A stretch of 18,053 nt of DNA from a virus. Location: positions 1 to 18,053 of IMG/VR virus record IMGVR_UViG_3300045988_162755; one strand, written 5' to 3'. The translations under genes and the position numbers were made by a program. Below the pieces are notes generated by a model that saw nothing but the letters and a program-made list of their open reading frames with translations, was not told the origin of the DNA and ran no database searches. Positions 791 through 16,182 of this stretch are shown here, in pieces; the stretch's first letter is position 1, and each line of letters opens with the position of its first letter.

Positions 791-837
791 AATTTAATTA
801 CCTTAATTTTGTTTAAGTAAACAAATTATATCACAAG

Positions 838-911
838 TGACCTTAAAAGTCTTGACAATAGGCTATATGTGACCTATAATGCTAATTGTAGGTTACATAT
901 GACCTAAACGC
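838..911. promoter_or_regulatory. Divergent promoter/operator region: rightward consensus promoter TTGACA(852-857)-17 nt-TATAAT(875-880); leftward promoter with extended -10 (TGaTATAAT on the minus strand); three TGACCT-containing operator-like half sites
   Basis: Direct reading. The -35 and -10 are perfect consensus hexamers with 17-nt spacing. The near-palindrome atatgtgacct...aggttacatat overlaps the -10. TGACCT motifs lie at ~842, ~870 and ~901. Confidence 0.6.
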
Positions 912-956
912 AAAGTAAAGGTGAGCGGATAACCTCAACCGCAGAAAGGAAAAAAC

Positions 957-1262
957 ATGAGAGGAATACTTATAGGAGCAATCCACAAGAAAGGCACATT
1001 TACGGACGATAACGGAAAATCAATCGACTATGACAACTTGGTGCTACAGGTGCAAAAGCCTATAGAAAACAAGTTGGCAGATGATTCAAATTTCGTTCAG
1101 GGTGTCGGTTACACTATCGCCAATGACTGCAAGTGTGCTTGGAGCGAAAGAGGAAACGTGTTCGGCAAAGATGTGTCTATGAAAGATATCGGAGAACTTG
1201 TCGGAACGGAAATCCAGTATTTCTACAACGATAAGAAGAAGCTTGAAGCGGTCATTATCTAA
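957..1262 (+). CDS. hypothetical 101-aa protein, the first gene of the structural operon; possibly the ssDNA-binding protein (gene V analogue), by position only
   Basis: RBS aaagga 7 nt before the ATG. The position (first gene after the regulatory region, upstream of the coat genes) matches gene V in inovirus gene order. No sequence motif supports this. Confidence 0.3.
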   Translation: MRGILIGAIHKKGTFTDDNGKSIDYDNLVLQVQKPIENKLADDSNFVQGVGYTIANDCKCAWSERGNVFGKDVSMKDIGELVGTEIQYFYNDKKKLEAVII

Positions 1263-1274
1263 GGGGGCTTGAAC

Positions 1275-1448
1275 ATGACAGTATACGCACTTTATTTTTG
1301 CTTGGTGGTGGCGCTTGCCCTGTTTTATTGCCTTACTCGTTGCTTTAAGGCAATTGATAAGAAAAATAAAGAAATTTCTAAACTGCAGTTCCGTGTTAAG
1401 GAACTGGAGCGGCAGGCTCAGGGAATTGAGGTTGTGGGCGTTGAATGA
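1275..1448 (+). CDS. small membrane protein, 57 aa (TM helix plus coiled-coil tail); possible minor virion or assembly protein
   Basis: Not in the ORF track, which lists only ORFs of 60 aa or more. ATG at 1275 is preceded by the RBS aaggggg at 7 nt. Translation MTVYALYFCLVVALALFYCLTRCFKAIDKKNKEISKLQFRVKELERQAQGIEVVGVE. Confidence 0.5.
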   Translation: MTVYALYFCLVVALALFYCLTRCFKAIDKKNKEISKLQFRVKELERQAQGIEVVGVE

Positions 1449-1665
1449 TGTCACTTCTTCACAAATTGATGTATCGTCTGTTTCTACCTCTGAGCAGACT
1501 GATGAATATACTATGTCGGCTGTTATCGAAAATCAGCACACTATAATCAATAATCAAAATATTACAATTTCATATTTAGGCACTATATGCTTTTTGATAA
1601 CAATATCTATCGGTATTTATCTTGTCATCAAGTTTGGCAAGTGGATATATAGCTTAATTAATTAA
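1441..1665 (+). CDS. small membrane protein (acidic, Ser/Thr-rich N-terminus and a C-terminal TM helix); alternative shorter start at ATG 1513
   Basis: C-terminal part of ORF 1315..1665. A TTG at 1441 is preceded by GAGGT (1428-1432) at 8 nt and overlaps the upstream stop, consistent with translational coupling. TM helix YLGTICFLITISIGIYLVIKFGKW. Confidence 0.35.
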   Translation: MNDVTSSQIDVSSVSTSEQTDEYTMSAVIENQHTIINNQNITISYLGTICFLITISIGIYLVIKFGKWIYSLIN

Positions 1666-1682
1666 GAAAGGAGAATGTGTTA

Positions 1683-1871
1683 ATGAATCCTGTTTCTACA
1701 ACTGCAGAAGGTGGCAATACTCTCGTAAATGTCGGTGAACTTATGAAACAGTTCGCTAACTCTGCTATTCAGGGCGTTTCCGATTCTATCGTCGCTCTTA
1801 TCCCTGTGATAACTCTGACAACTGTAATCGGCATTGCTATCAGAATGTTCAAAAAGTACGTAAAGGCGTAA
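1683..1871 (+). CDS. inovirus major coat protein (pVIII-like), 62 aa
   Basis: RBS aaggag 9 nt upstream of ATG 1683; the ORF track starts at GTG 1677. Classic architecture: polar N-terminus, hydrophobic helix SIVALIPVITLTTVIGIAI, basic C-terminus RMFKKYVKA (compare M13 ...IKLFKKFTSKAS). Followed directly by a strong terminator. Confidence 0.8.
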   Translation: MNPVSTTAEGGNTLVNVGELMKQFANSAIQGVSDSIVALIPVITLTTVIGIAIRMFKKYVKA

Positions 1872-1886
1872 GCCTGATAGCAACGA

Positions 1887-1918
1887 GGGCAGTTCATTCA
1901 GTGAACTGCCCTTTTATT
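1887..1918 (+). terminator. rho-independent terminator after the major coat gene
   Basis: Stem gggcagttca / tgaactgccc (10-11 bp) with a short loop, followed by ttttatt. Confidence 0.8.
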
Positions 1919-1941
1919 ATGCTAATTTTTAAGGGGGAATT

Positions 1942-2193
1942 ATGATAAATAGAAAACTATTTCATATAATTAACTTTATGCTTTGTATGCTTGATACTTG
2001 GCTTTTCATTGCCCCCTTTATAGTTTTTCATGTAATTACTTTTAATAGTATAATTTCATATCCCTTTACTACACCTAAACAAACTGCTTTATTTGGATTT
2101 ACTTTGTCTTTTCTTTTGGAGTTTATTATACATCATCTTATTTTTTCTGTTTGTCATCTTGTTGATTATTTTAGAAAGGAGAAAAAAATATGA
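1942..2193 (+). CDS. 83-aa polytopic membrane protein (2-3 TM helices)
   Basis: RBS aaggggg before the ATG. The stop overlaps the pIII start (ATGA). Hydrophobic throughout. Confidence 0.6.
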   Translation: MINRKLFHIINFMLCMLDTWLFIAPFIVFHVITFNSIISYPFTTPKQTALFGFTLSFLLEFIIHHLIFSVCHLVDYFRKEKKI

Positions 2194-3764
2194 AAACAAA
2201 ACTTCGGCGGCTTTTGTCAATCTTCTCTGCTATGGTGCTTATGGTCTGCTGTGCCGTCCCTGCGTTTGCTGATGATGTTAGCGGTGGTGGTTCGTCTAGT
2301 AACGTTATTCGTGTGAAACGATTTTCACAAATGATTGATTATGCAAAAAATAACAATATTGATATTGAAAATTCTCATTATATTATGACATATTCTGAGG
2401 ATAGTTCACAGTATTATTGGTGGTATTACATTTTCTTTCTTCCTGATGATATTTTGGTTAATGATACATTAATTCTTACACATGGTCGCTATTCATCATC
2501 TTTTACTAATTCTTTTATTAAGGCTCGTGTTTCTGACTATGGTAACTCTGACATAGATGATTTAGAATATTGTGCTAATGTTGATGTATCTTCTTTTTCT
2601 TTATTTGTTGATGATGATGAACAATCACATTCTTATCCTAATCACATCTTTAAATCTAATATTAAAATAACTAACAACGGCGATGATATAACACCTTCTG
2701 ATCCTTCCGCCCCACCAGTTCCCTTTACTGTCGATTATTCCCCTGCTCTCTCTGAGGGCATGAGTCGTAAGGGTACACTTGTTGCTCCGGGTGCAAGTAA
2801 TGACGGACAGGAAATTGAAAGCAATGGTCTTAACGTCCGTGTCACACTAACGGACGAATTTTTAAAACTCCGTGACAGCTATGATGAACTTAAAGATTAT
2901 ACATATGAATTTGTATGTTATATTACTACTTCCCCGCCTGAAAAGTCGTCTTATGAAGAAAGCGTTAAAAACGCTGTTTATACTTCTTTGGACTATGGCA
3001 AATATATGTATACTACAAGCGGCGTTGTTGATGATGTTACGGACGACAATAAAGAGCCTGCAGAATGGATAAAGGCAGAGGGCATAAATGCAGGTTACAT
3101 TATTGGTAAGGGTGGCTCTGTCAAGAATGTTACTATCAATCTTGAAAATCTTGATAGTTCACAGTTCACAGCCGATACAAAGCTTTATATCGTGGTATAT
3201 GGTCGCTTGACCTCTCTTTCAGTTCCTACTCCTGATTACTTTGACCTTGATAATCAAGGTTATTTGTGCAATCAAGGTTCTTTGAATACAAAGCAGATTG
3301 TAACAGTAAATGCTGACCCCGAAACAGGCGAGGGAACAGACGTTGTAATGCCTGATTACTATTGTGTAACGTCAACGGCATTTAATTATAAAGATTATCC
3401 TGAATATAAGCCGAAAATCTTCAAGAATGGTGCTGAAATGGATACAAACAAGCCGTTTACTGATTATCTTGATAAGAAGTTGACCCCTGATTATATGTAT
3501 GATTATGATATGGATAAAAACGGAGAAAGCGGTCTTGCTCCTGACGATTTCAAGAAATATGAGGAACAAAAAAAGCTTGATGAGAATTTCGGTTCTTTCG
3601 ATTTCGGACTTGACAGCATTAAATCAGTGTTTGACGGCTCGTCCGATTTTTTCAAATTCTTAACCGCAAGTATAGGTATCTTGCCCACAACGTTTTTAAC
3701 TATTCTGATTTCGTTTTTCGTTATCATGTTAGCAATATGCGTTGTTAAATGGGTCTTGAAATAG
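2190..3764 (+). CDS. pIII-like minor coat / adsorption protein, variant 1 (524 aa): signal peptide plus C-terminal membrane anchor
   Basis: RBS aaaggag. Signal peptide MKTKLRRLLSIFSAMVLMVCCAVPAFA|DD. C-terminal TM FLTASIGILPTTFLTILISFFVIMLAICVV. Large secreted middle part. The position after the major coat gene matches inovirus gene III. Confidence 0.6.
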   Translation: MKTKLRRLLSIFSAMVLMVCCAVPAFADDVSGGGSSSNVIRVKRFSQMIDYAKNNNIDIENSHYIMTYSEDSSQYYWWYYIFFLPDDILVNDTLILTHGRYSSSFTNSFIKARVSDYGNSDIDDLEYCANVDVSSFSLFVDDDEQSHSYPNHIFKSNIKITNNGDDITPSDPSAPPVPFTVDYSPALSEGMSRKGTLVAPGASNDGQEIESNGLNVRVTLTDEFLKLRDSYDELKDYTYEFVCYITTSPPEKSSYEESVKNAVYTSLDYGKYMYTTSGVVDDVTDDNKEPAEWIKAEGINAGYIIGKGGSVKNVTINLENLDSSQFTADTKLYIVVYGRLTSLSVPTPDYFDLDNQGYLCNQGSLNTKQIVTVNADPETGEGTDVVMPDYYCVTSTAFNYKDYPEYKPKIFKNGAEMDTNKPFTDYLDKKLTPDYMYDYDMDKNGESGLAPDDFKKYEEQKKLDENFGSFDFGLDSIKSVFDGSSDFFKFLTASIGILPTTFLTILISFFVIMLAICVVKWVLK

Positions 3765-3774
3765 GGGGTTCAAA

Positions 3775-3942
3775 ATGGATTGGTTTTCACTTATGAAGTC
3801 GCTGTTTGTATCAATACAACACTTGATGTGCTTGCGTATTCGTTTCGGTGAATTTAGTTTTACAGTAGGTGCAATGATTATAGGATTGTTTGTTATATCC
3901 TGCTCCGTTGCCCTGTTACGTTATCTTTTCCACAATACATAA
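3775..3942 (+). CDS. small membrane protein, 55 aa (possible pVI-like virion or assembly component)
   Basis: Not in the ORF track. RBS aggggg 8 nt before ATG 3775. Translation MDWFSLMKSLFVSIQHLMCLRIRFGEFSFTVGAMIIGLFVISCSVALLRYLFHNT. Confidence 0.45.
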   Translation: MDWFSLMKSLFVSIQHLMCLRIRFGEFSFTVGAMIIGLFVISCSVALLRYLFHNT

Positions 3943-3954
3943 GGAGTTGTTAAA

Positions 3955-4200
3955 ATGGTTGCAATATTAAAATTATTCGTCCTGTCACTGATAGTAATTC
4001 TTGCTATCAGTGCAGTTCTTGGCTTGGTGGCGTTCTTTATGGACTTGCACGCCTTTAAATCTGATAAAGACTTGTCGCTCCCTCGTAAACGGCTTATTGA
4101 AGCATTATTTGAGGAACAAGAGTTAAAAAAGCAATCGACTGAACAGCCACAGAACACGCCACAGATTGACAAGCAAGAGCCTGAGAAAGTGAGGTGGTAA
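3955..4200 (+). CDS. 81-aa membrane protein (N-terminal TM, charged C-terminal tail)
   Basis: RBS aaggag 8 nt upstream. TM VAILKLFVLSLIVILAISAVLGLVAFF. Confidence 0.55.
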   Translation: MVAILKLFVLSLIVILAISAVLGLVAFFMDLHAFKSDKDLSLPRKRLIEALFEEQELKKQSTEQPQNTPQIDKQEPEKVRW

Positions 4201-4400
4201 ATGTGTTATATGATGTTCAAAATGCCTGTTATCAGTTGCTAAAGCTTCTTGGCTGTGATCTCGCCGCTATTGACGTTATTAAAACTTGGAAGCAATTCGG
4301 TGTGCTTTGCATTGAATTTGTGTTTGCCTGTTTAATGCTTTTCCTGCTTTGGAAAATGCTTTATAATGCTATGATACGTTTCTTCAACCCTCGGAGGTAG
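4194..4400 (+). CDS. 68-aa hydrophobic protein (start GTG 4194 or GTG 4203)
   Basis: ORF track. gaggtgg lies just upstream of GTG 4203. The gene is tightly packed between its neighbours. Confidence 0.4.
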   Translation: MVNVLYDVQNACYQLLKLLGCDLAAIDVIKTWKQFGVLCIEFVFACLMLFLLWKMLYNAMIRFFNPRR

Positions 4401-4403
4401 CTT

Positions 4404-5201
4404 ATGATTTTATTAGATTATTTCGTTCGTCTGCCGTCCTTGGCGGCTTATACTGCCTATGATAAGGCTACGGCTTTATATTTTAATTGGTCGCAGATTT
4501 TCAACGGTTGGGGTATTCACCTTTTTGTCGGTAAATTCGGAGCAGGTAAGACCTCGCTTATGGTCGCTGAAGCTTATGAACTCTGTTGTAAATATCCTCA
4601 GCTTCACATACTAACAAACATTAATATTAAAAATTTCCCCGACTATACGGAGATATTACCCTTGAACACTGCACAAGATATACTCAACGCCCCTAAAAAC
4701 ACGCTTGTACTTATTGATGAAATAGGTACTATATTTAATAGCCGTGACTTTTCGGGCGGTAAATGTGCCGTTCCTAAACCGTTATTTCAGCACCTTTGCC
4801 AATGCCGTAAACGGCGTATGATGATATATGCAACAGTGCAGAGATTTAACCTCTTAGACAAACAAATTAGAGATATTACCGCAGACGTGACCGCTTGCCA
4901 TACGCATTTCAAACACCCATTTTGCCGTATACAGACAGGCTATACATATGACATTGAAGAATACGAACTCTATGCGGAAAATAAGGCTTATACACCTGCA
5001 CAGATGTACAATAGAACGTATCTACAGACAAATAAACGCCGTGAGCTTTATGATACATCACAGCTTGTCACAAATATGCTTTCAAAAGAGTATCTCAGTG
5101 ATGAAGAAATACTCTCCAATCGTGAGGGCATAGAGCCTAACACACAGCCACTTGACCGAAAGCAACGCAAATCTATTCGCAAGCGGAAAAATGCTTGGTA
5201 A
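4404..5201 (+). CDS. Zot-like P-loop NTPase (filamentous-phage assembly/morphogenesis protein, pI-like), variant 1
   Basis: Walker A FVGKFGAGKTSL near the N-terminus. Walker B LVLIDEIGT. The position after the pIII/pVI-like genes matches inovirus gene I / Zot. Confidence 0.65.
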   Translation: MILLDYFVRLPSLAAYTAYDKATALYFNWSQIFNGWGIHLFVGKFGAGKTSLMVAEAYELCCKYPQLHILTNINIKNFPDYTEILPLNTAQDILNAPKNTLVLIDEIGTIFNSRDFSGGKCAVPKPLFQHLCQCRKRRMMIYATVQRFNLLDKQIRDITADVTACHTHFKHPFCRIQTGYTYDIEEYELYAENKAYTPAQMYNRTYLQTNKRRELYDTSQLVTNMLSKEYLSDEEILSNREGIEPNTQPLDRKQRKSIRKRKNAW

Positions 5202-5206
5202 CGAAA

Positions 5207-5244
5207 CAACTCGCAGTGGTTGCCGTGAGGCTCACTGCGAGTTG
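5207..5244. terminator. bidirectional terminator hairpin between convergent genes
   Basis: Perfect 12-bp stem caactcgcagtg / cactgcgagttg with a 14-nt loop, flanked by T-rich sequence on both strands. Confidence 0.6.
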
Positions 5245-5468
5245 TTGTTGTCTTTGTTGTTAATCATCAGCAGATTGCTATTAACTGTGTTCTGCTGTAT
5301 CTGTCTTAATAATTCCGTTTGTTTCTCTTCTTCTCGTCTTATCGCTTTGCTGTTACCTGCTGTTTCAAATATAGCACATATCAACAGTATCACAATGACT
5401 ATTTTCACGATAAGTATAACAACGCCCATTGACGTCATAGCGTCCAACGCCGTGAATATTTCTTCCAT
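5232..5468 (-). CDS. 78-aa membrane protein (N-terminal TM, polar C-terminus), co-transcribed downstream of the RHH gene
   Basis: RBS gaggggtgag just upstream of the ATG. TM MGVVILIVKIVIVILLICAIF. Confidence 0.55.
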   Translation of the reverse strand: MEEIFTALDAMTSMGVVILIVKIVIVILLICAIFETAGNSKAIRREEEKQTELLRQIQQNTVNSNLLMINNKDNNNSQ

Positions 5469-5472
5469 ACTC

Positions 5473-5697
5473 TCACCCCTCGTCTGTATGTGTCTTTATT
5501 ACAATGTGGCTGTCCTCTGCGGATTTTATCTCATCAGTGATAACCTTTTTGAGATATCCTGCTTTTGATAAACCAAGCTCTTTTGCTCGGTCATTTATCA
5601 TCTGATTAAACCCCTTTGGAGCATAAAACTGTATTTTTTCGAGATTTTCTGCGTTCCATTTTGCATTTGCTTTCTTCTTGGCTTCTGATACCGCCAT
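5473..5697 (-). CDS. ribbon-helix-helix (CopG/Arc-like) DNA-binding protein
   Basis: Strong RBS aaggtggtgaggt. RHH-type pattern: N-terminal beta-strand segment (KIQFYAPKG) followed by two helices (NQMINDRAKELGLSKAGYLKKVI). Similar in pattern to the 59-aa protein at 10372..10551. Confidence 0.55.
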   Translation of the reverse strand: MAVSEAKKKANAKWNAENLEKIQFYAPKGFNQMINDRAKELGLSKAGYLKKVITDEIKSAEDSHIVIKTHTDEG

Positions 5698-5713
5698 TAC
5701 CTCACCACCTTTT

Positions 5714-5835
5714 CTACATTATACTATATCTATTGTAATTTGTCAACCACAATATACACTATATCCAGTTAATAATTATTTAATAAATACTTTACACTAT
5801 ATCCATTGCACATGGACTAGATATAGTGTATACTT
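5714..5835. promoter_or_regulatory. AT-rich regulatory region with three copies of the ACACTATATC motif (two direct at ~5755 and ~5796, one inverted at ~5821-5832); candidate RHH operator
   Basis: Direct reading: atacactatatccagtta, tttacactatatccattgca, ctagatatagtgtatac. Confidence 0.45.
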
Positions 5836-5892
5836 AATACAGACAAAGGGAAAGCGGTTATCCCACAAACCGCAGAAGAAAGGGTGTTTAAA

Positions 5893-6153
5893 ATGACTAT
5901 TTCAAATTACTATGTTCGTGAGTATCTTCGCCTTTATCGTGAATATCGTAAAGTAATTAATATATTTGATGCTTTTCTTTTGTATGGGAAAATAGAATAC
6001 ACCCTCGGTGAGTTGCGGAGAGATCTTTCTCTTGACTATCAATTTCACTGTGCCCTTCATGATAGGCTCTTTAATCTTTCTTGCCGTACTTGTGAAAAGT
6101 TCGGTCGTACTTGTGAAAAGTTCGGTAAACTTAAATCTCAGAATAATTTCTGA
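5893..6153 (+). CDS. hypothetical protein (86 aa) carrying a perfect in-frame 21-bp tandem duplication (RTCEKFG x2)
   Basis: ATG 5893; the ORF track starts at GTG 5884. The unit cgtacttgtgaaaagttcggt is duplicated at 6085-6105 and 6106-6126. Confidence 0.45.
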   Translation: MTISNYYVREYLRLYREYRKVINIFDAFLLYGKIEYTLGELRRDLSLDYQFHCALHDRLFNLSCRTCEKFGRTCEKFGKLKSQNNF

Positions 6154-6181
6154 TTTTTTTCTAAACTGAAAGGAGATTTTT

Positions 6182-6388
6182 ATGAAAAATAAATTTTACA
6201 CTGAGCAAAAGCACAGAGAAACTATGAATTCTGTTGATATGCTCGAAGGTCTTATTAATCGTATGTGCGTTACTAATGATGTCGATGAATTACGTCATCT
6301 TCTGACTTCTTCAATGTGTAGTTTGTCTGAATTATATGTTGTTGAGCGTGAAAAACTCAAAGAACGTATTTCTCAGAATGATTTCTGA
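6182..6388 (+). CDS. hypothetical protein (68 aa)
   Basis: RBS aaaggag 8 nt upstream. Its C-terminus ...ISQNDF and 3' flank resemble those of the preceding gene (...KSQNNF). Confidence 0.45.
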   Translation: MKNKFYTEQKHRETMNSVDMLEGLINRMCVTNDVDELRHLLTSSMCSLSELYVVEREKLKERISQNDF

Positions 6389-6436
6389 TTTTTCTATCTG
6401 TAAAATCTATCATGCGAACGGCTGGGGGTGAATTGC

Positions 6437-6545
6437 GAATTGTTGGAATTGTTGGAATGTTGGAAACAACAGCTTACAGGTTTTCAACATTTCAATGATT
6501 TCAATGATTCACAAGAGGGGAACGCCGTTCAAGATTTCCCCTTTT
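6437..6545. promoter_or_regulatory. iteron-like direct repeats (ttgttggaa x2 plus tgttggaa; atttcaatg x2) and a hairpin (aggggaa/ttcccct, 6516-6542) upstream of the Rep origin
   Basis: Direct reading of 6437-6545. Confidence 0.5.
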
Positions 6546-6578
6546 CACTTCCCTCTCGGCGTTCTGCTATACTCTTAT

Positions 6579-6608
6579 GAAGTCGGGGTTAGTATTACCC
6601 CCGACTTC
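6579..6608 (+). other. candidate rolling-circle replication origin (nick-site stem-loop): 10-bp stem GAAGTCGGGG / CCCCGACTTC with loop TTAGTATTAC, containing the nonanucleotide TAGTATTAC (6590-6598)
   Basis: Direct reading. TAGTATTAC is the canonical circovirus/nanovirus CRESS origin nonamer. Flanking direct repeats TTCTGCACA / TTGCACAA at 6606-6690. It sits immediately upstream of the HUH-SF3 Rep gene. Confidence 0.7.
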
Positions 6609-6705
6609 TGCACATTGCACAAAGTTTATAAATCTGCGTATCTACGTTATTAATCTTGTGCGAAAATATTTGCACAACTTCTGCACAAAAGGTGGTGATG
6701 TTAAT

Positions 6706-7905
6706 ATGGCTGATTTCAGTTGCCATTCTGCGTTCTGCGTTATAAACAACCCTCGCTACGATATTACATACAAGCACAATGAAGAGGGTGAAATAATCAA
6801 AGACGAGAACGGCAAGGCGGTTATATTAAAGCAAGAGCCTACGGAGTATCATTCATTGACAGAACAACAGATATGTGATGATGTTCTTAATAAGTGGGTC
6901 GGTGATGATGATAAGCGAACAGGAGCGGTTTTATTCTGCGTATCTGCTCTCGGTCTTGAACACTTGCATTGCGTTTTTGAAAGTGAAAAGACTTTCCGTC
7001 CGCTGTCTGCTTTGAAAAAGCTTTTTCCAAAGGTACATATTGAGATAACCAAAGGGAACAAAAAGCAAGTCGAAGACTATATAAACAAGGTCGGCAAGTT
7101 CGAGGAAAAGGGCGAAAAGATTATAGCAAAATCTCAGGTCGGTGAGATAAAAGGCTGTCAAGGCAAGCGTAACGATTTGATTTCAATGTCTGATATCCGT
7201 GATCTTATTTACAGCGGACAAACTCCGAACGATATATATAGGCAATATCCGCAGGCTATCAAGTCCAAAACTGCAACAGAAGAATTATTCTATTTGTACC
7301 GAAAGGACAACACACCGCCCGAACGTGATGTTAAAGTACATTGGTTGTTTGGTGGCACAGGTTGCGGAAAATCGTATACATACATTGAACTATGTGAAAA
7401 GCATGGTGATGTAAATATCTATCGTGTGACCGACTATGACCACCCTTTTGACGGCTACCAAGGAGAGCCGATATTAATACTTGATGAGTTCCGAGGGCGT
7501 ATCTCATACAGCTATTTGCTCACTCTGCTTGACAAGTACCGCTCTCAGGTATCTGCACGATACAGCAATAAAATGACGTTATGGACGGAAGTTTATATTA
7601 CTTCGCCGTTTCTGCCTACAGAACTTTATCAAAAAATCGCTGAACGTAATGACGGCATAGATAAACTTGAACAGCTTACGAGGCGTATTGATGATATAGT
7701 GTATTGTTTCAAATATCCTGCCGAGAACAACAGCGGTACATTTTATTGTAAATACAACGTTGATTTTGACCTTCATTGTGATAGTCACGCTATCCGTGAG
7801 CAGTGTTCACACGTTCGCCATGAGGTTTCACAAATGGGCTTGTTCACACTTATGGACGGCTTAACGTCAAAATTTGTTGAAAATAAAAACAAAAATGTCG
7901 GCTGA
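6706..7905 (+). CDS. rep: Rolling-circle replication initiator, CRESS-like: N-terminal HUH endonuclease (superfamily II, single catalytic Tyr) fused to an SF3 helicase
   Basis: ATG 6706 with RBS aaaggtgg. The alternative start at 6577 would read through the origin hairpin. Motif I FCVINNP. Motif II (HUH) LEHLHCVF. Motif III DYINKVGK (YxxK). Walker A GGTGCGKS. Walker B ILILDEF. Motif C ITSP. Confidence 0.75.
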   Translation: MADFSCHSAFCVINNPRYDITYKHNEEGEIIKDENGKAVILKQEPTEYHSLTEQQICDDVLNKWVGDDDKRTGAVLFCVSALGLEHLHCVFESEKTFRPLSALKKLFPKVHIEITKGNKKQVEDYINKVGKFEEKGEKIIAKSQVGEIKGCQGKRNDLISMSDIRDLIYSGQTPNDIYRQYPQAIKSKTATEELFYLYRKDNTPPERDVKVHWLFGGTGCGKSYTYIELCEKHGDVNIYRVTDYDHPFDGYQGEPILILDEFRGRISYSYLLTLLDKYRSQVSARYSNKMTLWTEVYITSPFLPTELYQKIAERNDGIDKLEQLTRRIDDIVYCFKYPAENNSGTFYCKYNVDFDLHCDSHAIREQCSHVRHEVSQMGLFTLMDGLTSKFVENKNKNVG

Positions 7906-7953
7906 TTTTACAAAGCCGACAACATATATTATAATCATTTTGGGAGGTACACC

Positions 7954-8187
7954 ATGAAGCAAAAAGAAATTTGCAAGGAAGAAATCAACCTTTTCTATTT
8001 GTGGCTCTGTGGCACGATAGGCAAGGAGAAAGGAGAGGATAAAAGGCTTGTGTTTCTGTGCTGTCCTGCTGAGCGTGACACGCTCCTTAGGCTGTTTCTT
8101 GCAGAGTACAAAGCAGAACACCGCTACAACGCATTTAAGAGGGCTTTTCAGCCGTCCACACGCATTATAACAGTAAAAAGAGTGTAG
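7954..8187 (+). CDS. hypothetical 77-aa protein between rep and int
   Basis: Strong RBS gggaggt 7 nt upstream of the ATG. Confidence 0.45.
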   Translation: MKQKEICKEEINLFYLWLCGTIGKEKGEDKRLVFLCCPAERDTLLRLFLAEYKAEHRYNAFKRAFQPSTRIITVKRV

Positions 8188-8264
8188 CCATTATAAGCCC
8201 ATGTATTGGCGTACATGGAATGACTACACCCGATATTACAACCCCTCGAAAGGAAGTAATCACT

Positions 8265-9173
8265 ATGAAATTTAAAGAATTTTATTACAAGGACTTTCGC
8301 CCCTCTTATTTAGAGGGCGTTGTCCGCTATCCTGAGCAAACCGACTATGTGATTGAGCAGAATTGCAAGCCGATAAACGGCAAGGACCTTTCCGAAATCG
8401 GTCTTTCTGACCTCAATAACATTATCAAGATATGTGATGATACATATTGCATTGACAGAGTGAAAAAGCTCCGCAGTGTTCTTAAGCGTATCATGCGTTA
8501 CGCTTACGCTTGCCGTTATACGCCTATTGACCTATCTGCATTCGAGTTAAGGCGGTGCAGAAAACGCCCTGAAACAGTGCAACAGCTATCATTTACGGCA
8601 GAGCAAGCCGCTTTTCTGACTTCGGGTGATAGCACTATAATGAAGATGTTCCGTTTTGAGTGCTTGACAGGTCTACGCCGTGAAGAAATACTCGCCTTGC
8701 GTTGGGAGAACGTTGACCTACCTCACCGCCGTATCTTTGTTTGTCAAACTGTTGTTGTTTTAAAAGGCTGTGCAAGGCTCGTTGACGATACCAAAAACCA
8801 CAAGTTTCGCTATGTGGAGTTGAACGAAAGTGCTTACAAACTGTTGCTTTCCGTTCCGCAGACCTGTGATTTTGTATTCGGCAATCCACGTTCAAAGAAC
8901 TTTCTCAGCCCTCGCCGTTACCACGAGGAGTATAATACAATGTTCATTCGCAAGAATGAGGAATGGAAAAAGACCCACGCAGAGGGCTTGCCACACCTCA
9001 CACCGCACAAATTCCGTCACACGTTCGCAAGTCTGCTGACCGCTAACGGAGCGGATGTTAAGACAGTTGCCGACTTGCTCGGTCACACAAAGCTTGACAC
9101 CACAAACATTTATTTGCACTCTTATGATGATTTACGCCGTCAGGCGGTCGATAAGATACAATTAGATAATTAA
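8265..9173 (+). CDS. int: tyrosine recombinase / phage integrase, variant 1 (alternative start 8220)
   Basis: RBS aaggaag 8 nt before ATG 8265. Box I LTGLRREEILALRWENVDL. Box II HKFRHTFASLL. LLGHTKLDTTNIYLH with the catalytic Tyr. It ends 24 nt from the 3' end of tRNA-Pro. Confidence 0.8.
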   Translation: MKFKEFYYKDFRPSYLEGVVRYPEQTDYVIEQNCKPINGKDLSEIGLSDLNNIIKICDDTYCIDRVKKLRSVLKRIMRYAYACRYTPIDLSAFELRRCRKRPETVQQLSFTAEQAAFLTSGDSTIMKMFRFECLTGLRREEILALRWENVDLPHRRIFVCQTVVVLKGCARLVDDTKNHKFRYVELNESAYKLLLSVPQTCDFVFGNPRSKNFLSPRRYHEEYNTMFIRKNEEWKKTHAEGLPHLTPHKFRHTFASLLTANGADVKTVADLLGHTKLDTTNIYLHSYDDLRRQAVDKIQLDN

Positions 9174-9197
9174 TTTAACAGCCGCTCTTCGGGCTTT

Positions 9198-9274
9198 TGG
9201 TCGGAGTGACCGGATTTGAACCGACGACCTCTACCACCCCAAGGTAGCGCGCTAACAATCTGCGCCACCCCCCG
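9198..9274 (-). tRNA. tRNA-Pro (anticodon GGG), 77 nt including an encoded CCA
   Basis: Manual cloverleaf fold of the minus strand: acceptor CGGGGGG / CACTCCG (one mismatch), D arm GCGC/GCGC, anticodon stem CTACC/GGTAG with loop TTGGGGT, T arm with the TTCAAAT loop, discriminator A, CCA. Confidence 0.75.
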
Positions 9275-9285
9275 ATATCGTATAT

Positions 9286-9314
9286 ATTATACCCGATTTG
9301 GATACAATAGTCAA
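9286..9314 (-). promoter_or_regulatory. sigma-70 promoter for tRNA-Pro (minus strand TTGACT-17 nt-TATAAT)
   Basis: Plus-strand agtcaa at 9309-9314 and attata at 9286-9291, with a 17-nt spacer. The transcription start falls at the 5' end of the tRNA. Confidence 0.6.
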
Positions 9315-9352
9315 GAGTTTTCAGTCAAAATAAAAAAATTGCAAAAAAGGTA

Positions 9353-9381
9353 TTGACATTCACATTCATTTGTGATATAAT
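9353..9381 (+). promoter_or_regulatory. consensus sigma-70 promoter for tRNA-fMet (TTGACA-17 nt-TATAAT with a TGn extended -10)
   Basis: ttgaca at 9353-9358 and tataat at 9376-9381, with tga immediately upstream of the -10. Confidence 0.7.
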
Positions 9382-9424
9382 AAATAAGCACTCAGGAGAG
9401 AGCAGTAAAAAAACAGTAGAATAT

Positions 9425-9501
<77 letters not shown>

Positions 9502-9507
9502 GAGAGA

Positions 9508-9541
9508 AGGCTGTTGCAATTGCGACAGCCTATTTTTTTTT
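9508..9541 (+). terminator. rho-independent terminator downstream of tRNA-fMet
   Basis: Stem aggctgttgca / tgcgacagcct followed by a run of nine or ten T. Confidence 0.8.
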
Positions 9542-9552
9542 GTTGAATAGTG

Positions 9553-9894
9553 CTAAAGATTTTCAAACGCAAGAATTTTTTCATGTAATTCAGAAGCGAA
9601 TTTTTCAAGAGCAGACTTAGACCAAATTAAATTCGATTGATTTTTTTTGAGTAAATCAAGGGTATAACTATAAGCAGCTTTATAAATTTCATAATCGGAT
9701 ATAGCAGTAAGAGTAATCAACCCTTTTTCATAGTACGAATCCATTGCAAACATAAGCTGAAAGCATATCCTACTTAGTCTTTCTTCTTCAACATCATTAT
9801 CTAAATTTAAAATAATATTTTGCCACTTTGCATTATAAACACGATACGCAAAAGCAAGAATATAATAATTATCAACAGTATCAAATTTTTTCAT
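9553..9894 (-). CDS. hypothetical 113-aa protein (AT-rich gene)
   Basis: RBS gaaagg before the ATG. No recognisable motif. Confidence 0.45.
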   Translation of the reverse strand: MKKFDTVDNYYILAFAYRVYNAKWQNIILNLDNDVEEERLSRICFQLMFAMDSYYEKGLITLTAISDYEIYKAAYSYTLDLLKKNQSNLIWSKSALEKFASELHEKILAFENL

Positions 9895-9912
9895 TTTAAT
9901 AAACCTTTCAAC

Positions 9913-9941
9913 TTGACATTTAGTAAAATTTGTGTTATACT
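9913..9941 (+). promoter_or_regulatory. consensus sigma-70 promoter TTGACA(9913-9918)-17 nt-TATACT(9936-9941) with a TGn extended -10, driving the candidate small RNA
   Basis: Direct reading. Confidence 0.45.
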
Positions 9942-9947
9942 CGGATT

Positions 9948-10026
9948 TACAAAGCGGAGGATATCCGAGTTTGTGTGTGATTATGTAGTCGGTGTGTTTT
10001 GACGGATAGCCGACTACATTTTTTAT
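9948..10026 (+). ncRNA. candidate small RNA (~75-80 nt) ending in an intrinsic terminator (10-bp stem atgtagtcgg / ccgactacat, 9983-10019, plus a T run)
   Basis: The promoter lies about 7 nt upstream. There is no credible ORF: the only frame is a 60-aa track ORF with no RBS. The terminator faces the plus strand only. Confidence 0.35.
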
Positions 10027-10184
10027 GCTTCTTCAAGCATTTGTTTGAGTTCGTTAATCAGCTTTGATAAAGCTTCATATTCGCAATCAGCATGAATATT
10101 ATAAGCCTTTTCGATAATAATTCTAAGCTGTTCACGCTTTGCATACTTTATCGCAAGTTCTGTAGCTGTAGGCATGTTCTGCAT
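10023..10184 (-). CDS. hypothetical 53-aa protein
   Basis: Not in the ORF track. Strong RBS aaaggagtgagg before ATG 10184. Translation MQNMPTATELAIKYAKREQLRIIIEKAYNIHADCEYEALSKLINELKQMLEEA. Confidence 0.45.
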   Translation of the reverse strand: MQNMPTATELAIKYAKREQLRIIIEKAYNIHADCEYEALSKLINELKQMLEEA

Positions 10185-10204
10185 TATCCTCACTCCTTTC
10201 AATT

Positions 10205-10371
10205 TCCTCCGCTGTGAAAGTTACCTTTATCTCTTTCACTATATATATTATAGCATATTGCTAGCAATATATCAATAGGCATTTTGCATGAAATTTGCTA
10301 GCATTATATGTTGAAATTGTATATTGATAGCATTATAATTATATGATATAATAGAGCAAAGAGGTGATAAC
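10205..10371. promoter_or_regulatory. AT-rich regulatory region with the 16-bp palindrome atattgctagcaatat and repeated GCTAGCATTATA-like motifs; candidate operators for the adjacent RHH protein
   Basis: Direct reading: tagcatattgctagcaatatatc, ttgctagcattatatg, ttgatagcattataat. Confidence 0.45.
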
Positions 10372-10551
10372 ATGGTAAGCGAAGCACAAAAGAAAGCCAC
10401 AAGCAAATATATTTCAAAAGCATATGACCAAGTATCTTTACGAATGCCAAAGGGCAAACGAGAAGAATACAAAGCCCATGCAGAACGGCAAGGCAAGAGC
10501 CTGAACGCCCTTATAATTGAACTACTCGAAAAAGATATGCAGGAGCATTAA
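10372..10551 (+). CDS. ribbon-helix-helix DNA-binding protein, 59 aa
   Basis: Not in the ORF track. RBS agaggtga 6 nt before the ATG. Translation MVSEAQKKATSKYISKAYDQVSLRMPKGKREEYKAHAERQGKSLNALIIELLEKDMQEH. Same pattern as the 74-aa RHH at 5473..5697. Confidence 0.5.
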   Translation: MVSEAQKKATSKYISKAYDQVSLRMPKGKREEYKAHAERQGKSLNALIIELLEKDMQEH

Positions 10552-10568
10552 GCCCCTGCATTTTTTTA

Positions 10569-10766
10569 TTAATCATTTTCCTGCTGTTTTGCATAATCTC
10601 TCATAAATTGAGGGGCGGAACAATTTTCACAAACAGTTGAATCCGTAAAATGATAAACACATTCATCACAATAACCATAACAGCCGCACTCAAAAAAACC
10701 GCATTTCTTATTATCACACTTACCGAAATCAGTATTTTCCTTGCACCAAAAATTAAACTCTTTCAT
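10569..10766 (-). CDS. Cys-rich miniprotein (~65 aa, 11 Cys); putative zinc-ribbon or metal-binding peptide
   Basis: ATG at 10766 with RBS aaagga; the ORF track starts at TTG 10793. Translation MKEFNFWCKENTDFGKCDNKKCGFFECGCYGYCDECVYHFTDSTVCENCSAPQF... Confidence 0.45.
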   Translation of the reverse strand: MKEFNFWCKENTDFGKCDNKKCGFFECGCYGYCDECVYHFTDSTVCENCSAPQFMRDYAKQQEND

Positions 10767-10859
10767 TTTCAACATTCCTTTCAAAATTCTCAATAATCAT
10801 TTCAAGAACATAGCTCACATAAAGCAGAAACACCCCTGAATAAGCCGTAAGTGCTACCC

Positions 10860-11852
10860 TCATAAGTTATCACCCTTATAAGGTGAAAGCTTATAGCCTA
10901 TCGTTTTCGACATCTGAGCTTTATTCTCAGCAGATACATGAGTATATGTATCAGCCGTAAGCTTGTATGTACTGTGACCGAGCCACTCCGAAACCTCTTT
11001 CATACTGAAACCGCTATTAAGCATAAGCGTTGCATTGCTATGTCTAAGGTCATGTATACGAATTTTCGGTAAATCATTCTTGCGGAGCAAGTCTTGAAAG
11101 GCGTGCAGTACATAATCATAGTGAAGCGGTACACCCTCAGCGTTAACGCAAACATAATTCCTTGCCTTGCACAGTGGAGCTTGTCTGCCATAAAGCTTTT
11201 GCAAATAATCAAGCTGCTCATTACTAAGAGGAAATTCACGGCGAGATTTTACAGTTTTCATTCTCTTGTTTTGACTTTCGACCCAATGCCCTGACTTATA
11301 GTCTTTTATCCTAGTTCTTGTTTCACGGATATAAAGACAACGCCCGAGGAAGTCAACATTATCCCAACGCAAACCAAGTATCTCGGACTTGCGAAGTCCA
11401 AACCACACAGCGAGATACACAAAGCTTTCTATCTGAGTACCATAAGCCGCACGCAGGAGCTTCAAGAGCTGTTCTTCTGTATAGTATGACATTTCATTTT
11501 CAACCTTTCTAGGAAGCGAAAAAGCCGTGTAAGGGTTTTTGCTTATAAAATCGTTCTTATATGCGTAATTCAGACACGCACGCATGACTTCATGATGTTT
11601 ACGGAGCGTATTCACAGAAAGCCTTGTATCATGCAGTATGTGCCTTTGATAGCCCTCTATGTGCATAGGCTTAACGTCAATAAGCTTAAGTCCTTTGCTC
11701 TTGAAATAAGGGTAAAGGTATTTTGTAATGATACCTACATAGCCATCATAAGTTGACGGAGATTTTCTGTAACACGTTTCATTATTCCATACTATGATAT
11801 AGTCACAGAACAATATTTTATCCGTGTCAATGTTTTCAATGCTCATTATCAT
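10860..11852 (-). CDS. int: tyrosine recombinase / phage integrase, variant 2
   Basis: Box I GLRKSEILGLRWDNVDF. Box II HDLRHSNATLML. WLGHSTYKLTADTYTHV with the catalytic Tyr. Clearly different from integrase 1. Confidence 0.8.
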   Translation of the reverse strand: MIMSIENIDTDKILFCDYIIVWNNETCYRKSPSTYDGYVGIITKYLYPYFKSKGLKLIDVKPMHIEGYQRHILHDTRLSVNTLRKHHEVMRACLNYAYKNDFISKNPYTAFSLPRKVENEMSYYTEEQLLKLLRAAYGTQIESFVYLAVWFGLRKSEILGLRWDNVDFLGRCLYIRETRTRIKDYKSGHWVESQNKRMKTVKSRREFPLSNEQLDYLQKLYGRQAPLCKARNYVCVNAEGVPLHYDYVLHAFQDLLRKNDLPKIRIHDLRHSNATLMLNSGFSMKEVSEWLGHSTYKLTADTYTHVSAENKAQMSKTIGYKLSPYKGDNL

Positions 11853-12154
11853 TTTGCCAAGGTCCTTTCCTGATGATAGTTGTTATAGATTTTTACCTTT
11901 GTCACGTTATCAAGCTGATGAAAGACGGCTCTTGAAAGTCTGTGCTTGCGGAGATATTCAAGGAAACTTTTTGATTCAGTTGCAGGCGAAGTATTACGTA
12001 AAGCCCTAACAATATCAGAATTGCAATCGTTATTATAAAAGCTTTCAAGTATTTGTTGCTGAACGTTTTCAGACAATGACAAATAATGATTATAACTAAT
12101 CCTGCAAGTATCAGATAGAAAACGTTGAAAAGCAATAAGCATTTCATCATTCAT
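11849..12154 (-). CDS. hypothetical 101-aa protein between rep and int
   Basis: RBS aaaggagtga before the ATG. It overlaps the rep stop. Confidence 0.45.
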   Translation of the reverse strand: MNDEMLIAFQRFLSDTCRISYNHYLSLSENVQQQILESFYNNDCNSDIVRALRNTSPATESKSFLEYLRKHRLSRAVFHQLDNVTKVKIYNNYHQERTLAK

Positions 12155-13151
12155 TTAGTTCACTCCTTTCAAAATAATCATCATATTCCTTGCGGTACTC
12201 GTCAGAGTAAATATAATCAAGGAAATCTGCAATATTATCAAACCTAGCTGAAACTTCTTCAAAGTTCGGAATAATATTTACATTTGTATTGTACTTATAC
12301 TGGTTAGAGGTATAAGGTTTTGTAATAGCCGACTTTGAAACGCTATCAAAATCGGTATTACTGTATATGATCTGAGGGTCTCGATTACAGTTTCGACTGC
12401 TCCAATAATACTTGCCGAATATCTTATTATTGCCCTTTGTAATATATTTTGTGATATAGAACGCAAGAGCCGCCGAATTATTTTCCACAGGAATAGCCGT
12501 GGAAAAGCCGTATTTCCATTCAGGTATATTATACACAACGTTTCTAACGTGCAAGTTTTTTTCATCAATAGTCTTTAATGTAACAGGCTTGTTATATCCA
12601 GTTACAAGCCTTGTGCCTGAATCGACCATATCAAAGCAATCATTGATAAGAGCGTGACAATGTATACCGCCGTTCTTATGCCTTTCAGGAATGAGCAAGT
12701 ATTTCATATCTTTCCGCTTGACCTGATTTTCAAGCCACCGCCTAAGTTTTTTCTTAACAAAATCAGCATTAGAAAAATCGTATTCACTACCATTGAAAGT
12801 AATAGTGAGAAAATACGCCCACTCATTTGAAAAGGCTATATCAAAGACCTTGTCTTTTGCACGCTTTAATATATCCGTCCGTTCCCCTCTTTCCTCTTTT
12901 GAAACCTTTGCAGGTTTTTTGATTATATCAAACATATCTGTTTGAGTATCTTCTTCCTGCTGAGATTTCTCAAATTTCTCCCATTTTCGTTTAAGCTGTA
13001 ATATTTTCTGATTTTGCTGATACTCTTTAAGGTTTTTATCAACGAATATGTAATTGTTGCAATAAGTTGTTGTCGAAGAGCCGTCAGCATAGATTTTTGT
13101 TTTAGTATTTTTTAAAACGACCTCAGGGGGTAAATCATAAAAATTTGCCAT
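12147..13151 (-). CDS. rep: Rolling-circle replication initiator, φX174 gpA / filamentous-phage gII-like (superfamily I HUH, two-Tyr motif)
   Basis: Motif I FLTITFNG. Motif II (HUH) GGIHCHALIN. Motif III AFYITKYITKGNNK (YxxKY). No helicase domain. Confidence 0.7.
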   Translation of the reverse strand: MANFYDLPPEVVLKNTKTKIYADGSSTTTYCNNYIFVDKNLKEYQQNQKILQLKRKWEKFEKSQQEEDTQTDMFDIIKKPAKVSKEERGERTDILKRAKDKVFDIAFSNEWAYFLTITFNGSEYDFSNADFVKKKLRRWLENQVKRKDMKYLLIPERHKNGGIHCHALINDCFDMVDSGTRLVTGYNKPVTLKTIDEKNLHVRNVVYNIPEWKYGFSTAIPVENNSAALAFYITKYITKGNNKIFGKYYWSSRNCNRDPQIIYSNTDFDSVSKSAITKPYTSNQYKYNTNVNIIPNFEEVSARFDNIADFLDYIYSDEYRKEYDDYFERSELNE

Positions 13152-13274
13152 TTTCCCACCGCCATTTTAGTTTTTGACGGAAATTTGCGGTTATTATCAA
13201 GTATATAACCGCAAATTTCTAAGCTTGCAAGCTGTTCGCCACGGCGCACGCAGAAGCGTGCGCACGTGGCTGAA
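13152..13274. promoter_or_regulatory. intergenic region of the right phage: 14-bp perfect inverted repeat aaatttgcggttat / ataaccgcaaattt (13181-13218), 12-bp palindrome agcttgcaagct (13222-13233), and a GC-rich hairpin (13239-13268); candidate origin / packaging signal
   Basis: Direct reading. The position between the morphogenesis ATPase and rep matches the inovirus IG region. Confidence 0.45.
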
Positions 13275-16112: not shown

Positions 16113-16135
16113 AATTCCCCCTTAAAAATTAGCAT

Positions 16136-16167: not shown

Positions 16168-16182
16168 TCGTTGCTATCAGGC

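Follow-up and report, generated by a model that had tools for sequence, protein, structure and literature searches.

We analyzed an 18,053-nucleotide stretch of viral DNA (IMG/VR record IMGVR_UViG_3300045988_162755, positions 1 to 18,053; here called the window) and conclude that its positions 6433-7905 are very likely the replication module, that is, the plus-strand origin and the initiator gene (rep), of an integrated, inovirus-like filamentous prophage from a human-gut bacterium (Clostridia, Oscillospiraceae) of the Hominimerdicola aceti type, with a replication initiator protein (Rep) of the bacterial pCRESS1 lineage. Circo-, nano-, and redondoviruses have Reps related to this lineage. An earlier reading of the same DNA (the sequence-only reading) had proposed a bacterial inovirus with a circovirus-type origin and Rep, and the Zot/pI, coat-like, and pIII-like proteins, the integrase, and the attachment (att) site that we find around the module support this proposal.

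The origin is a hairpin in which the arm GAAGTCGGGG (6579-6588) is fully complementary to the arm CCCCGACTTC (6599-6608), with a loop at 6589-6598 that contains the nonamer TAGTATTAC (Table 1); the perfect 10-bp stem, the 10-nt loop, and the circo-/nanovirus nonamer described in the sequence-only reading are thus all present. Origins of circo-, nano-, and geminiviruses have stems of 9-11 bp and loops of 10-13 nt, and the nanovirus faba bean necrotic yellows virus (FBNYV) has TAGTATT*AC as its cognate site (Tompkins et al. 2021). The window hairpin likewise carries a NAGTATTAC nonanucleotide, with loop and stem within these limits, and the geometry of window and relatives (stem 10 bp, loop 10-11 nt) lies within the range of these viral origins. 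Folded as single-stranded DNA (ssDNA), a 71-nt stretch with the hairpin has a minimum free energy (MFE) of −13 kcal/mol, compared to −4.0 ± 1.7 for shuffled sequences (z = −5.3; 0 of 200 shuffles folded as well), so that the hairpin has the stability that the sequence-only reading had made a test of its proposal. The nonamer by itself was rejected as evidence: its single copy in the window compares with a chance expectation of 0.17 copies, and at least one copy turned up in 31 of 200 shuffles, which is not significant alone. What gives the origin its significance is that the nonamer stands in a loop, lies 100 nt upstream of the Rep gene, and is kept in relatives. The nick site is predicted between T6596 and A6597, and DNA carrying TTAGTATTACC is the predicted nicking target of Rep.

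The conservation of this origin was followed through homologous loci drawn from metagenome contigs, species genomes, IMG/VR (34 loci), and more distant family members. Homologues are plentiful in Ruminococcus, Oscillospiraceae, and Lachnospiraceae genomes and in gut metagenomes, and the Rep family comprises 537 clusters at 50% identity with E <= 1e-30. Every related locus whose rep-flanking sequence is covered, down to ~30% Rep identity, has one hairpin with (T/C)AGTATTAC in its loop per rep gene. The hairpin mostly lies 110-170 nt upstream of rep; it begins ~260 nt upstream in L054, is separated from rep by an additional open reading frame (ORF) in L041, and in Butyricicoccus-type contigs (L046-L048; FtsK_SpoIIIE and serine recombinase, no Zot), where rep occupies 8001-9011, a TAGTATTAC hairpin stands directly downstream of the gene at 9023. 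We counted stem pairs by position from the loop, because differing loop lengths put a MAFFT alignment of the hairpins out of register; pairs 1-8 are Watson-Crick in all ten lineages (80 of 80 cells paired), with compensatory, double-sided changes among them at pairs 3-8. Even Bajarodino virus 56, with ~30% Rep identity, has the hairpin CTGCCGGG-tctagtattac-CCCGGCAG, whose stem is unrelated to that of the window. The Bifidobacterium plasmid p4M (pCRESS3; L044, NC_003527) carries GTGGGCGG-catagtgttac-CCGCCCAC at 2730-2756, 57 nt upstream of repA and followed by the short tandem repeat GTACCA GTACCA; its nonamer differs from TAGTATTAC by one base. As a separate observation, an Acetatifactor metagenome-assembled genome (L008, 5300-11455) holds two rep genes of the family ~4 kb apart, ~41% identical to the window Rep, each with its own nonamer hairpin and with a tyrosine integrase adjoining; no Zot was detected, and the pair looks like tandem small integrative replicons.

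Directly at the 3' arm of the stem, tandem TGCACA(A) repeats follow. The sequence-only reading had noted iteron-like repeats on both sides of the hairpin; the repeats are real on both sides and the downstream ones behave like iterons, but the upstream ones, TGTTGGAA in three copies and ATTTCAATG in two, turned out to be the two arms of a long hairpin (6433-6514), are absent from more distant relatives, and were rejected as iterons. An inverted iteron pair lies ~40 nt past the tandem copies, and ACTTC-TGCACAA, a stem-end repeat joined to an iteron, stands just ahead of the ribosome-binding site (RBS). This segment (6656-6688) is likely a Rep operator, and its arrangement recurs with other iteron words in L001, L004, L005, L006, L007, and L041. 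Throughout the lineages examined the layout of the iterons is constant and the iteron word is lineage specific: TGCACA in the window and 6 loci, TGATACA in 12 loci, CGTCACA in 12 loci (11 plus L005), GTTACA(A) in several, GGAGACA in L049, and TGTCGC / GTCGCA in Bajarodino virus 56. The word co-varies with Rep residues 2-9, chiefly residues 5 and 7: TGCACA goes with the N terminus MADFSCHSAF, TGATACA with MAEFNCRSAF, CGTCACA with MSEFTCKSTF, and GTTACA with MSDFACKSTF. Over the first 150 amino acids (aa), only D3E, S5N, and H7R separate the window Rep from that of L004 (iteron TGATACA), and the changes relative to L001 and L018 are again concentrated in residues 2-9. This is the pattern expected if these residues read the iterons; it is a co-variation and not a binding result, and makes them a candidate specificity determinant.

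The rep gene lies in a mechanical ORF of 6577-7905, with a likely start at the ATG at 6706 behind AGGTGGTGA (6690-6698). Its product combines an HUH nuclease with a superfamily 3 (SF3) helicase, and the motifs quoted in the sequence-only reading (FCVINN, HLHCVF, YINK, GGTGCGKS, ILILDEF, and ITSP) are all present, with FCVINN, a uuTu-like motif I, at aa 10-15 and Y125 as the predicted catalytic tyrosine. Motifs I to III vary little or not at all among 26 homologues. The profile search suggested earlier had a divided outcome, with SF3 PF00910 scoring over its cut-off (24.8 bits versus 21.5) and Viral_Rep PF02407 staying under its own. Since PHROGs and Viral_Rep failed to place the protein, its family was assigned through sequence and profile matches in the PDB, fold comparison, and the sequences of the pCRESS supplement. 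These searches match Reps of viruses with circular, Rep-encoding ssDNA genomes (CRESS viruses) and not an unrelated primase/helicase family. In a phmmer search of the PDB, the Rep of Vientovirus, a redondovirus, was found with E = 1e-14 and that of porcine circovirus 2 (PCV2) with E = 1e-10, and a profile of 26 homologues matched PCV2 Rep with E = 3e-19. Motifs II and III align with the redondovirus Rep (HLHCVF with HYHCLI, DYINK with NYIKK) and motif III with that of PCV2 (DYINK with EYCSK, the catalytic-tyrosine motif), as do the linker QGxRxDL and the whole ATPase, including R326-R327, which align with the arginine pair of PCV2 YRRI. The family-invariant PKVHIEITKG (aa 108-117) resembles the ssDNA-bridging motif ARCHIEKAKG of PCV2, which contacts the nonamer (Tompkins et al. 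2021). A full-length AlphaFold (AF2) model (predicted local distance difference test score, 86.7) has Vientovirus and PCV2 Rep as its best Foldseek matches, then Rep68 of adeno-associated virus and picornavirus 2C; the N-terminal domain as modelled has an HUH nuclease fold nearest to circovirus and nanovirus Rep nucleases. The window Rep also has an insertion of ~33 aa after motif I, not present in more distant family members.

To place this Rep among known lineages, we compared it by BLASTP with the pCRESS1, pCRESS2, and two CRESS-virus groups of sequences in Supplementary file 4 of Kazlauskas 2019. Most pCRESS1 members share 36-39% identity with the window Rep over ~280-300 aa (E 1e-50 to 1e-60), compared to 29-36% for pCRESS2 (E 1e-26 to 1e-34) and ~25% for CRESSV1/2 (E 3e-5 to 7e-11). 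The scores fall in the same order, with 171-188 bits for four out of five pCRESS1 members (128 for ButMB-E1), 97-118 for pCRESS2, and 34-52 for CRESSV1/2, and other members of the window Rep's family reach 45-48% identity to pCRESS1. The window Rep further shows the pCRESS1 signature, HUH and not HUQ, YxxK and not YLxH, and a motif C without Asn, a trait that Kazlauskas 2019 (Supplementary Note 1, PMC6668415) gives for pCRESS1 and also for the YLxH supergroup. Pairwise similarity and motif signature together put the Rep in or beside bacterial pCRESS1 and not in a eukaryotic virus lineage. The label "eukaryotic-CRESS-style" given in the sequence-only reading therefore does not hold as a statement of descent.

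The window holds two prophages, inverted relative to each other, around tRNA-Pro and tRNA-Met. The left one, which carries the module, reads on the plus strand as a helix-turn-helix repressor, small proteins with a single transmembrane (TM) segment, a coat-like protein, a secreted and anchored protein of 524 aa, Zot/pI, origin and rep, a 77-aa ORF, integrase, and attR. Its Zot/pI has phrog_1675, "morphogenesis (protein I of M13)," as best PHROG (E = 5e-12), and Pfam and PHROGs scans of this prophage found no second Rep or replication initiator. The pIII-like label is a candidate resting on position and architecture only, with no Pfam or PHROGs family match for the protein. The order Zot-origin-rep-integrase is seen again in many independent contigs as well as in the genome of a cultured isolate, H. 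aceti Sanger_31, which has a 97%-identical Rep and also the two-prophage arrangement. In L002 a unit of 7,885 nt is bounded by a 46-nt att repeat, and L041, a circular contig of ~8.2 kb with a 127-nt terminal overlap, holds Zot, Rep, and origin. Across the family, six of nine sampled Rep sub-lineages sit with Zot in inovirus-like units; of the other three, one is an element with FtsK_SpoIIIE and a serine recombinase and two are very small Rep-plus-recombinase elements. Misassembly joining Rep to phage genes was considered and rejected for the Rep-Zot linkage, which is shared by many independent contigs and the isolate genome. In the right, or sister, prophage the Rep is of the G2P type (12147-13151, minus strand; PF23343, 47.8 bits), in agreement with the gII-type Rep that the earlier reading had assigned to this prophage, and the Zot shares only 25% identity with that of the left prophage.

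Several points weigh against the conclusion that the module serves a filamentous phage with an active Rep of this kind. The coat candidate stays under the cut-off for PF19199 Phage_coatGP8 (19.6 bits versus 24.6) and matches phrog_1646, "major coat protein," with E = 0.0045; no attL of the left prophage was found in the window; and since this Rep type also occurs in elements without Zot, an element cannot be called a phage for having it alone. Positions 1-2684 of the window are an inverted copy of the other prophage's end, so the completeness of the left-prophage copy cannot be judged. As for the protein, Viral_Rep PF02407 gives 15.2-17.1 bits, below its cut-off of 26, PHROGs has no match for the Rep or its N-terminal domain, and ATPase/helicase activity cannot be assumed because motif C is without the Asn common to all CRESS-virus helicases.

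These points bear in part on other explanations. The element could be a non-viral, integrative pCRESS-like plasmid with an incidental Zot/FtsK-like ATPase and small membrane proteins, forming no filamentous particles, which we hold to be improbable. Kazlauskas 2019 took all pCRESS elements as plasmids or integrated plasmids, related Reps do occur in FtsK_SpoIIIE and serine recombinase elements or in very small Zot-less ones, and the coat-protein matches lie under curated cut-offs. Yet the Zot scores over the PF05707 cut-off and points to protein I of M13, and gene order and sizes, the run of small single-TM proteins, the pIII-like protein, and a unit of 7.4-8.2 kb all fit inoviruses; moreover, relatives with homologous Rep and Zot are in GenBank as complete circular Inoviridae genomes from fecal viromes, and the 34 related loci in IMG/VR speak for a virus as well. 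It is very improbable, in our judgment, that Rep and origin are a separate small replicon inserted in or beside an inovirus prophage whose replication depends on something else. Small Rep-plus-integrase units without structural genes exist (L008, L052) and the Zot-to-origin region varies among relatives, but the left prophage yielded no second initiator, the Rep always stands between structural block and integrase within the att-bounded unit, and circular L041 and the circular Bajarodino genomes hold this Rep alone.

Recent capture of the module from a eukaryotic CRESS-DNA virus, from virus to phage, would account for a nonamer that is the same as in nanoviruses and many circoviruses and for best structural matches that are eukaryotic-virus Reps, though the PDB has no pCRESS Rep with which to compare. 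We give this idea hardly any credence, given a Rep with far more similarity to those of bacterial pCRESS1 and pCRESS2 than to those of CRESS viruses, a large and diverse family in Clostridia, a motif C without the Asn common to all CRESS viruses, and a similar hairpin with TAGTGTTAC in the Bifidobacterium plasmid p4M. That the hairpin is an ordinary terminator or operator with its nonamer by chance, as the expectation of 0.17 copies might allow for the nonamer alone, has next to no probability: no T-run follows the stem and the scan of the region found no terminator-like site, the loop is kept while the stem changes compensatorily over ~30-97% Rep identity, a conservation that contradicts this explanation, and the hairpin always adjoins rep, even where it lies downstream of the gene.

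For a filamentous prophage with a pCRESS1-type Rep, the reading that we prefer, the following mechanism is proposed by analogy with the Reps of circoviruses and nanoviruses. Rep would bind the two tandem TGCACA(A) iterons at the 3' arm of the hairpin, with the residues shortly ahead of motif I, S5 and H7 above all, setting specificity, and the hairpin would extrude and show TAGTATTAC in its loop. Tyr125, with a metal held by His86 and His88, would then cut between T7 and A8 of the nonamer and stay on the 5' end, a host polymerase would extend the 3'-OH, with the template unwound by the SF3 helicase of Rep itself, and after one round Rep would cut and re-join the regenerated origin, releasing a circular plus strand. 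Because the nonamer shares its strand with all structural genes, the displaced strand would be the coding strand, as in Ff phages, to be coated and extruded by the Zot/pI machinery. The further iterons over the rep promoter/RBS region probably serve autoregulation. It is from such parallels that we infer nicking, helicase use, the packaged strand, and virion production.

Table 1. Positions of the replication module and of other features in the window
Feature	Position	Strand	Description
Candidate major coat protein, 64 aa	1677-1871	+	One TM-like segment, then basic C-terminal tail
pIII-like large secreted protein, 524 aa (candidate)	2190-3764	+	TM-like aa 5-30 (signal-like) and 489-524 (anchor); net charge −33
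pI/Zot-like morphogenesis ATPase	4404-5201	+	PF05707, 31.3 bits versus cut-off 20.3
Long imperfect hairpin, 82 nt	6433-6514	+	Inverted repeat I1; 35-nt arms, 77% complementary
Second small hairpin	6513-6545	+	AAGAGGGGAA / TTCCCCTTTT; inverted repeat I4; formed in MFE structure
Promoter-like site	6544-6573	+	TTCACT, 18-nt spacer, TG-TATACT; consensus scan, 9/12 matches; reads into hairpin and rep
Plus-strand origin hairpin	6579-6608	+	Stem 10 bp, loop 10 nt TTAGTATTAC
Nonamer TAGTATTAC	6590-6598	+	Same as FBNYV cognate nonanucleotide
Two tandem iterons, TGCACA-T-TGCACAA	6609-6622 (copies at 6609, 6616)	+	Abut 3' arm of stem
Inverted iteron pair TTGTGC ... TGCACAA (6656-6677), then ACTTC-TGCACAA (6677-6688)	6656-6688	+	Repeats D3, D7, I7; likely Rep operator
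rep, 399 aa	6706-7905	+	HUH nuclease aa 1-150, linker, SF3 helicase ~aa 209-335, variable C-terminal tail
rep codons 2-9 (ADFSCHSA)	6709-6732	+	Candidate iteron-specificity determinant, residues 5 and 7 key
Motif II, H86-L-H88 (HLHCVF aa 86-91)	6961-6969	+	Metal binding; invariant in 26 family members
Motif III, Y125-INK (aa 125-128)	7078-7089	+	K128 invariant, Y125 in at least 90% of 26 members
Walker A GGTGCGKS (aa 216-223) to Walker B ILILDEF (aa 256-262)	7351-7491	+	PF00910; aligns with PCV2 Rep ATPase
Motif C, VYITSP (ITSP aa 298-301)	7591-7608	+	Aligns with PCV2 ILITSN; without CRESS-virus Asn
Conserved basic 77-aa ORF	7954-8187	+	Always between rep and integrase; 47-100% identical copies in L001-L007
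Tyrosine integrase	8220-9173	+	PF00589, 92.4 bits
attR, 3' part of tRNA-Pro (gene 9198-9274, minus strand)	9197-9242	.	Matches 46-nt terminal direct repeat of L002, 3 mismatches

Around the origin, the ssDNA fold of 6395-6625 reaches −45 kcal/mol (z = −6.6). The long hairpin at 6433-6514, kept only in the close relatives L001, L032, and L037, may be a packaging signal or a minus-strand origin, by comparison with the intergenic region of Ff phages. Promoter-like sites are no commoner in this region than in shuffles, which leaves the site at 6544-6573 weakly supported. The left half of the origin has a partial second copy (3781-3811, repeat D8), which we took as chance, because the 12-nt exact core of this copy is expected several times per 18 kb by our estimate and because the copy lies inside a conserved ORF. 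The 77-aa ORF downstream of rep has no Pfam match.

Between Zot and the origin, the 89-aa ORF 5884-6153 contains a perfect 21-nt tandem duplication (6085-6126) that gives RTCEKFG twice, and its 3' end is 78% alike over 46 nt to that of ORF 6182-6388 (6113-6158 and 6348-6393). In several relatives the segment 5878-6158 sits elsewhere in the locus, inverted in some, and so behaves like a movable cassette. The same region holds a small divergent gene (5473-5697, minus strand) with a faint NikA-like match; at the equivalent position, genes in L049 (6531-6716) and L050 weakly match PF10723 (RepB-RCR_reg, a CopG-like regulator of pMV158-type plasmids), and the divergent gene may be a copy-number or lysogeny regulator.

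The ends of the window, 1-2684 and 15370-18053, form a 2,684-nt inverted repeat with 99% identity in which position x pairs with 18054-x exactly, and which in both prophages spans the repressor, the small structural genes, and ~165 codons from the start of the pIII-like gene. Given the perfect symmetry of these ends, the contig probably stops at repeat boundaries of the assembly graph. The junction at 2684 is real, since L018, L022, and L031 read through it. GC-rich repeats of 44 and 60 nt (GGGGGAGCGCACAAACTCCACAAGGGAGAAACAG...), unlike the AT-rich phage sequence, occupy positions 1-200 and are mirrored at 17850-18053. In the H. aceti isolate, a 3'-end fragment of the integrase and the att are repeated at the left border of the prophage (L004, 2396-2723), and further left lies a partial prophage with an integrase and a G2P-type Rep 40% identical to that of the sister prophage; for serial integration by inoviruses, this tRNA region is a hotspot.

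Inoviruses whose Rep is CRESS-like, with HUH nuclease plus superfamily 3 helicase (HUH-S3H), and of bacterial pCRESS lineage have been on record since 2019, and the novelty implied by the sequence-only reading was overstated: an inovirus protein family with rolling-circle replication (RCR) motifs and S3H was listed by Roux et al. 2019, Inoviridae with such Reps are in GenBank, and one pCRESS2 element carries a Zot. Three things appear to be new: pCRESS1-type Reps are linked explicitly to filamentous prophages, an origin layout of the circovirus/nanovirus type is traced across pCRESS1-3 elements, and the iterons are seen to co-vary with the Rep N terminus. The likeness to eukaryotic CRESS viruses thereby reaches from the protein to the origin, with nonamer, geometry, and iteron placement in pCRESS1 and pCRESS2 and a one-base variant in pCRESS3 (p4M), and this extension strengthens the case for inheritance of the whole module as one unit. 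We speculate, as a possible but rather unlikely scenario, that a complete circo-/nano-/redondo-like system (loop nonamer, stem geometry, 3' tandem iterons, determinant before motif I, and HUH-S3H Rep) pre-existed in the bacterial p4M-like (pCRESS1-3) cluster, many members of which would be ssDNA-packaging filamentous phages and not plasmids. A bacterial ssDNA virus could in that case have been the donor of the Cressdnaviricota replication module, and circovirus-type initiation would have an experimental bacterial model in a cultured gut isolate. Given the 97%-identical Rep in cultured H. aceti Sanger_31, nicking, replication, strand packaging, and helicase dependence are testable in a bacterium, and the co-variation of residues 5 and 7 with the iterons is a precise hypothesis for specificity and for avoiding cross talk between co-resident phages. 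Our results correct the generalization that inovirus Reps lack a helicase and pCRESS elements lack virus structural genes; they overturn no model and fit the accepted picture of inoviruses swapping replication modules with plasmids.

In the literature on inoviruses with S3H or on filamentous pCRESS elements we found only the 2019 papers and a 2026 taxonomy note, and, in the library searched, no paper describing the origin of these bacterial elements; no literature on the Bajarodino viruses was found. S3H is missing from the efunavirian replication proteins named in the 2026 taxonomy commentary, and reviews, including the 2026 realm paper, give Rep_trans, HUH, RepL, or transposases as the replication proteins of filamentous phages. 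Kazlauskas 2019 (PMC6668415) treats pCRESS as plasmids or integrated plasmids and inovirus Reps as having no helicase domain, and contains no analysis of origins, nonanucleotides, or iterons. The pCRESS1 elements described there resemble the window element in their two-domain HUH plus SF3 Rep in Clostridia and in tRNA-gene integration by a tyrosine recombinase, but their carriers are without viral structural homologues, whereas the window element has Zot/pI and coat-like genes in one att-bounded unit. Despite the denial in its text, the supplementary table of that paper gives the pCRESS2 element HugHat-E1 (Hungatella hathewayi, CZAZ01000001) a "Zonular occludens toxin (Zot) / PHA00012 I assembly protein"; the members WP_124101057, WP_118359467, and RHO65228 of the window Rep's family are absent from the supplement.

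Among inoviruses, a close parallel is iPF_00203, a family of 56 sequences labeled "RCR + helicase" (S3H) by Roux et al. 2019 (PMC6813254; Fig. 5b legend and Supplementary Table 5). Its motif order is that of the window Rep, and it is mentioned in the legend and table without an origin analysis. Several IMG/VR contigs related to the window element derive from IMG metagenomes. The Pfam family Viral_Rep is matched by 38 of its 56 members and not, at threshold, by the window Rep, and for this reason iPF_00203 may be mainly pCRESS2-like, as is Bajarodino virus 56. The Bajarodino viruses (PQ006124, PQ006184, and others; Inoviridae from rodent feces) are circular, 5.7-10 kb in size, and carry Zot and an HUH-S3H Rep; like the window element, they have a TAGTATTAC hairpin upstream of rep with tandem iterons next to it. 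The Rep of Bajarodino virus 56 is of the pCRESS2 type, 66% identical to that of HugHat-E1 and ~30% to the window Rep, and reaches the Viral_Rep threshold. With gpII of the Ff phages (M13/f1/fd), the window system shares rolling-circle initiation and an origin in an intergenic region with other hairpins. Reps of the gpII/G2P type, including that of the sister prophage, have no helicase domain, unlike the window Rep; Ff replication uses a host helicase, and the Ff origin is not known to be a hairpin with a nonamer in its loop.

Residues before motif I, the iteron-related domain, are proposed to read the iterons in geminiviruses and co-vary with them. Here, too, iteron changes track a few residues N-terminal to motif I, in a different Rep lineage and different hosts and with co-variation as the support. 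There is also similarity with circo- and nanoviruses (PCV2, Muscovy duck circovirus, and FBNYV), which have the nonamer (T/A)AGTATT|AC in a loop of 10-13 nt on a stem of 9-11 bp, a single catalytic Tyr in YxxK, and the Walker A, Walker B, and arginine pair of an SF3 helicase. Circovirus origins have repeats directly 3' of the stem. The window Rep is nevertheless only ~20-25% identical to these viral Reps, with HLH and not HLQ in motif II and a motif C without Asn, and its element differs from theirs in its bacterial host, its size of 7-8 kb, its filamentous-phage structural genes, and its integrase-mediated lysogeny.

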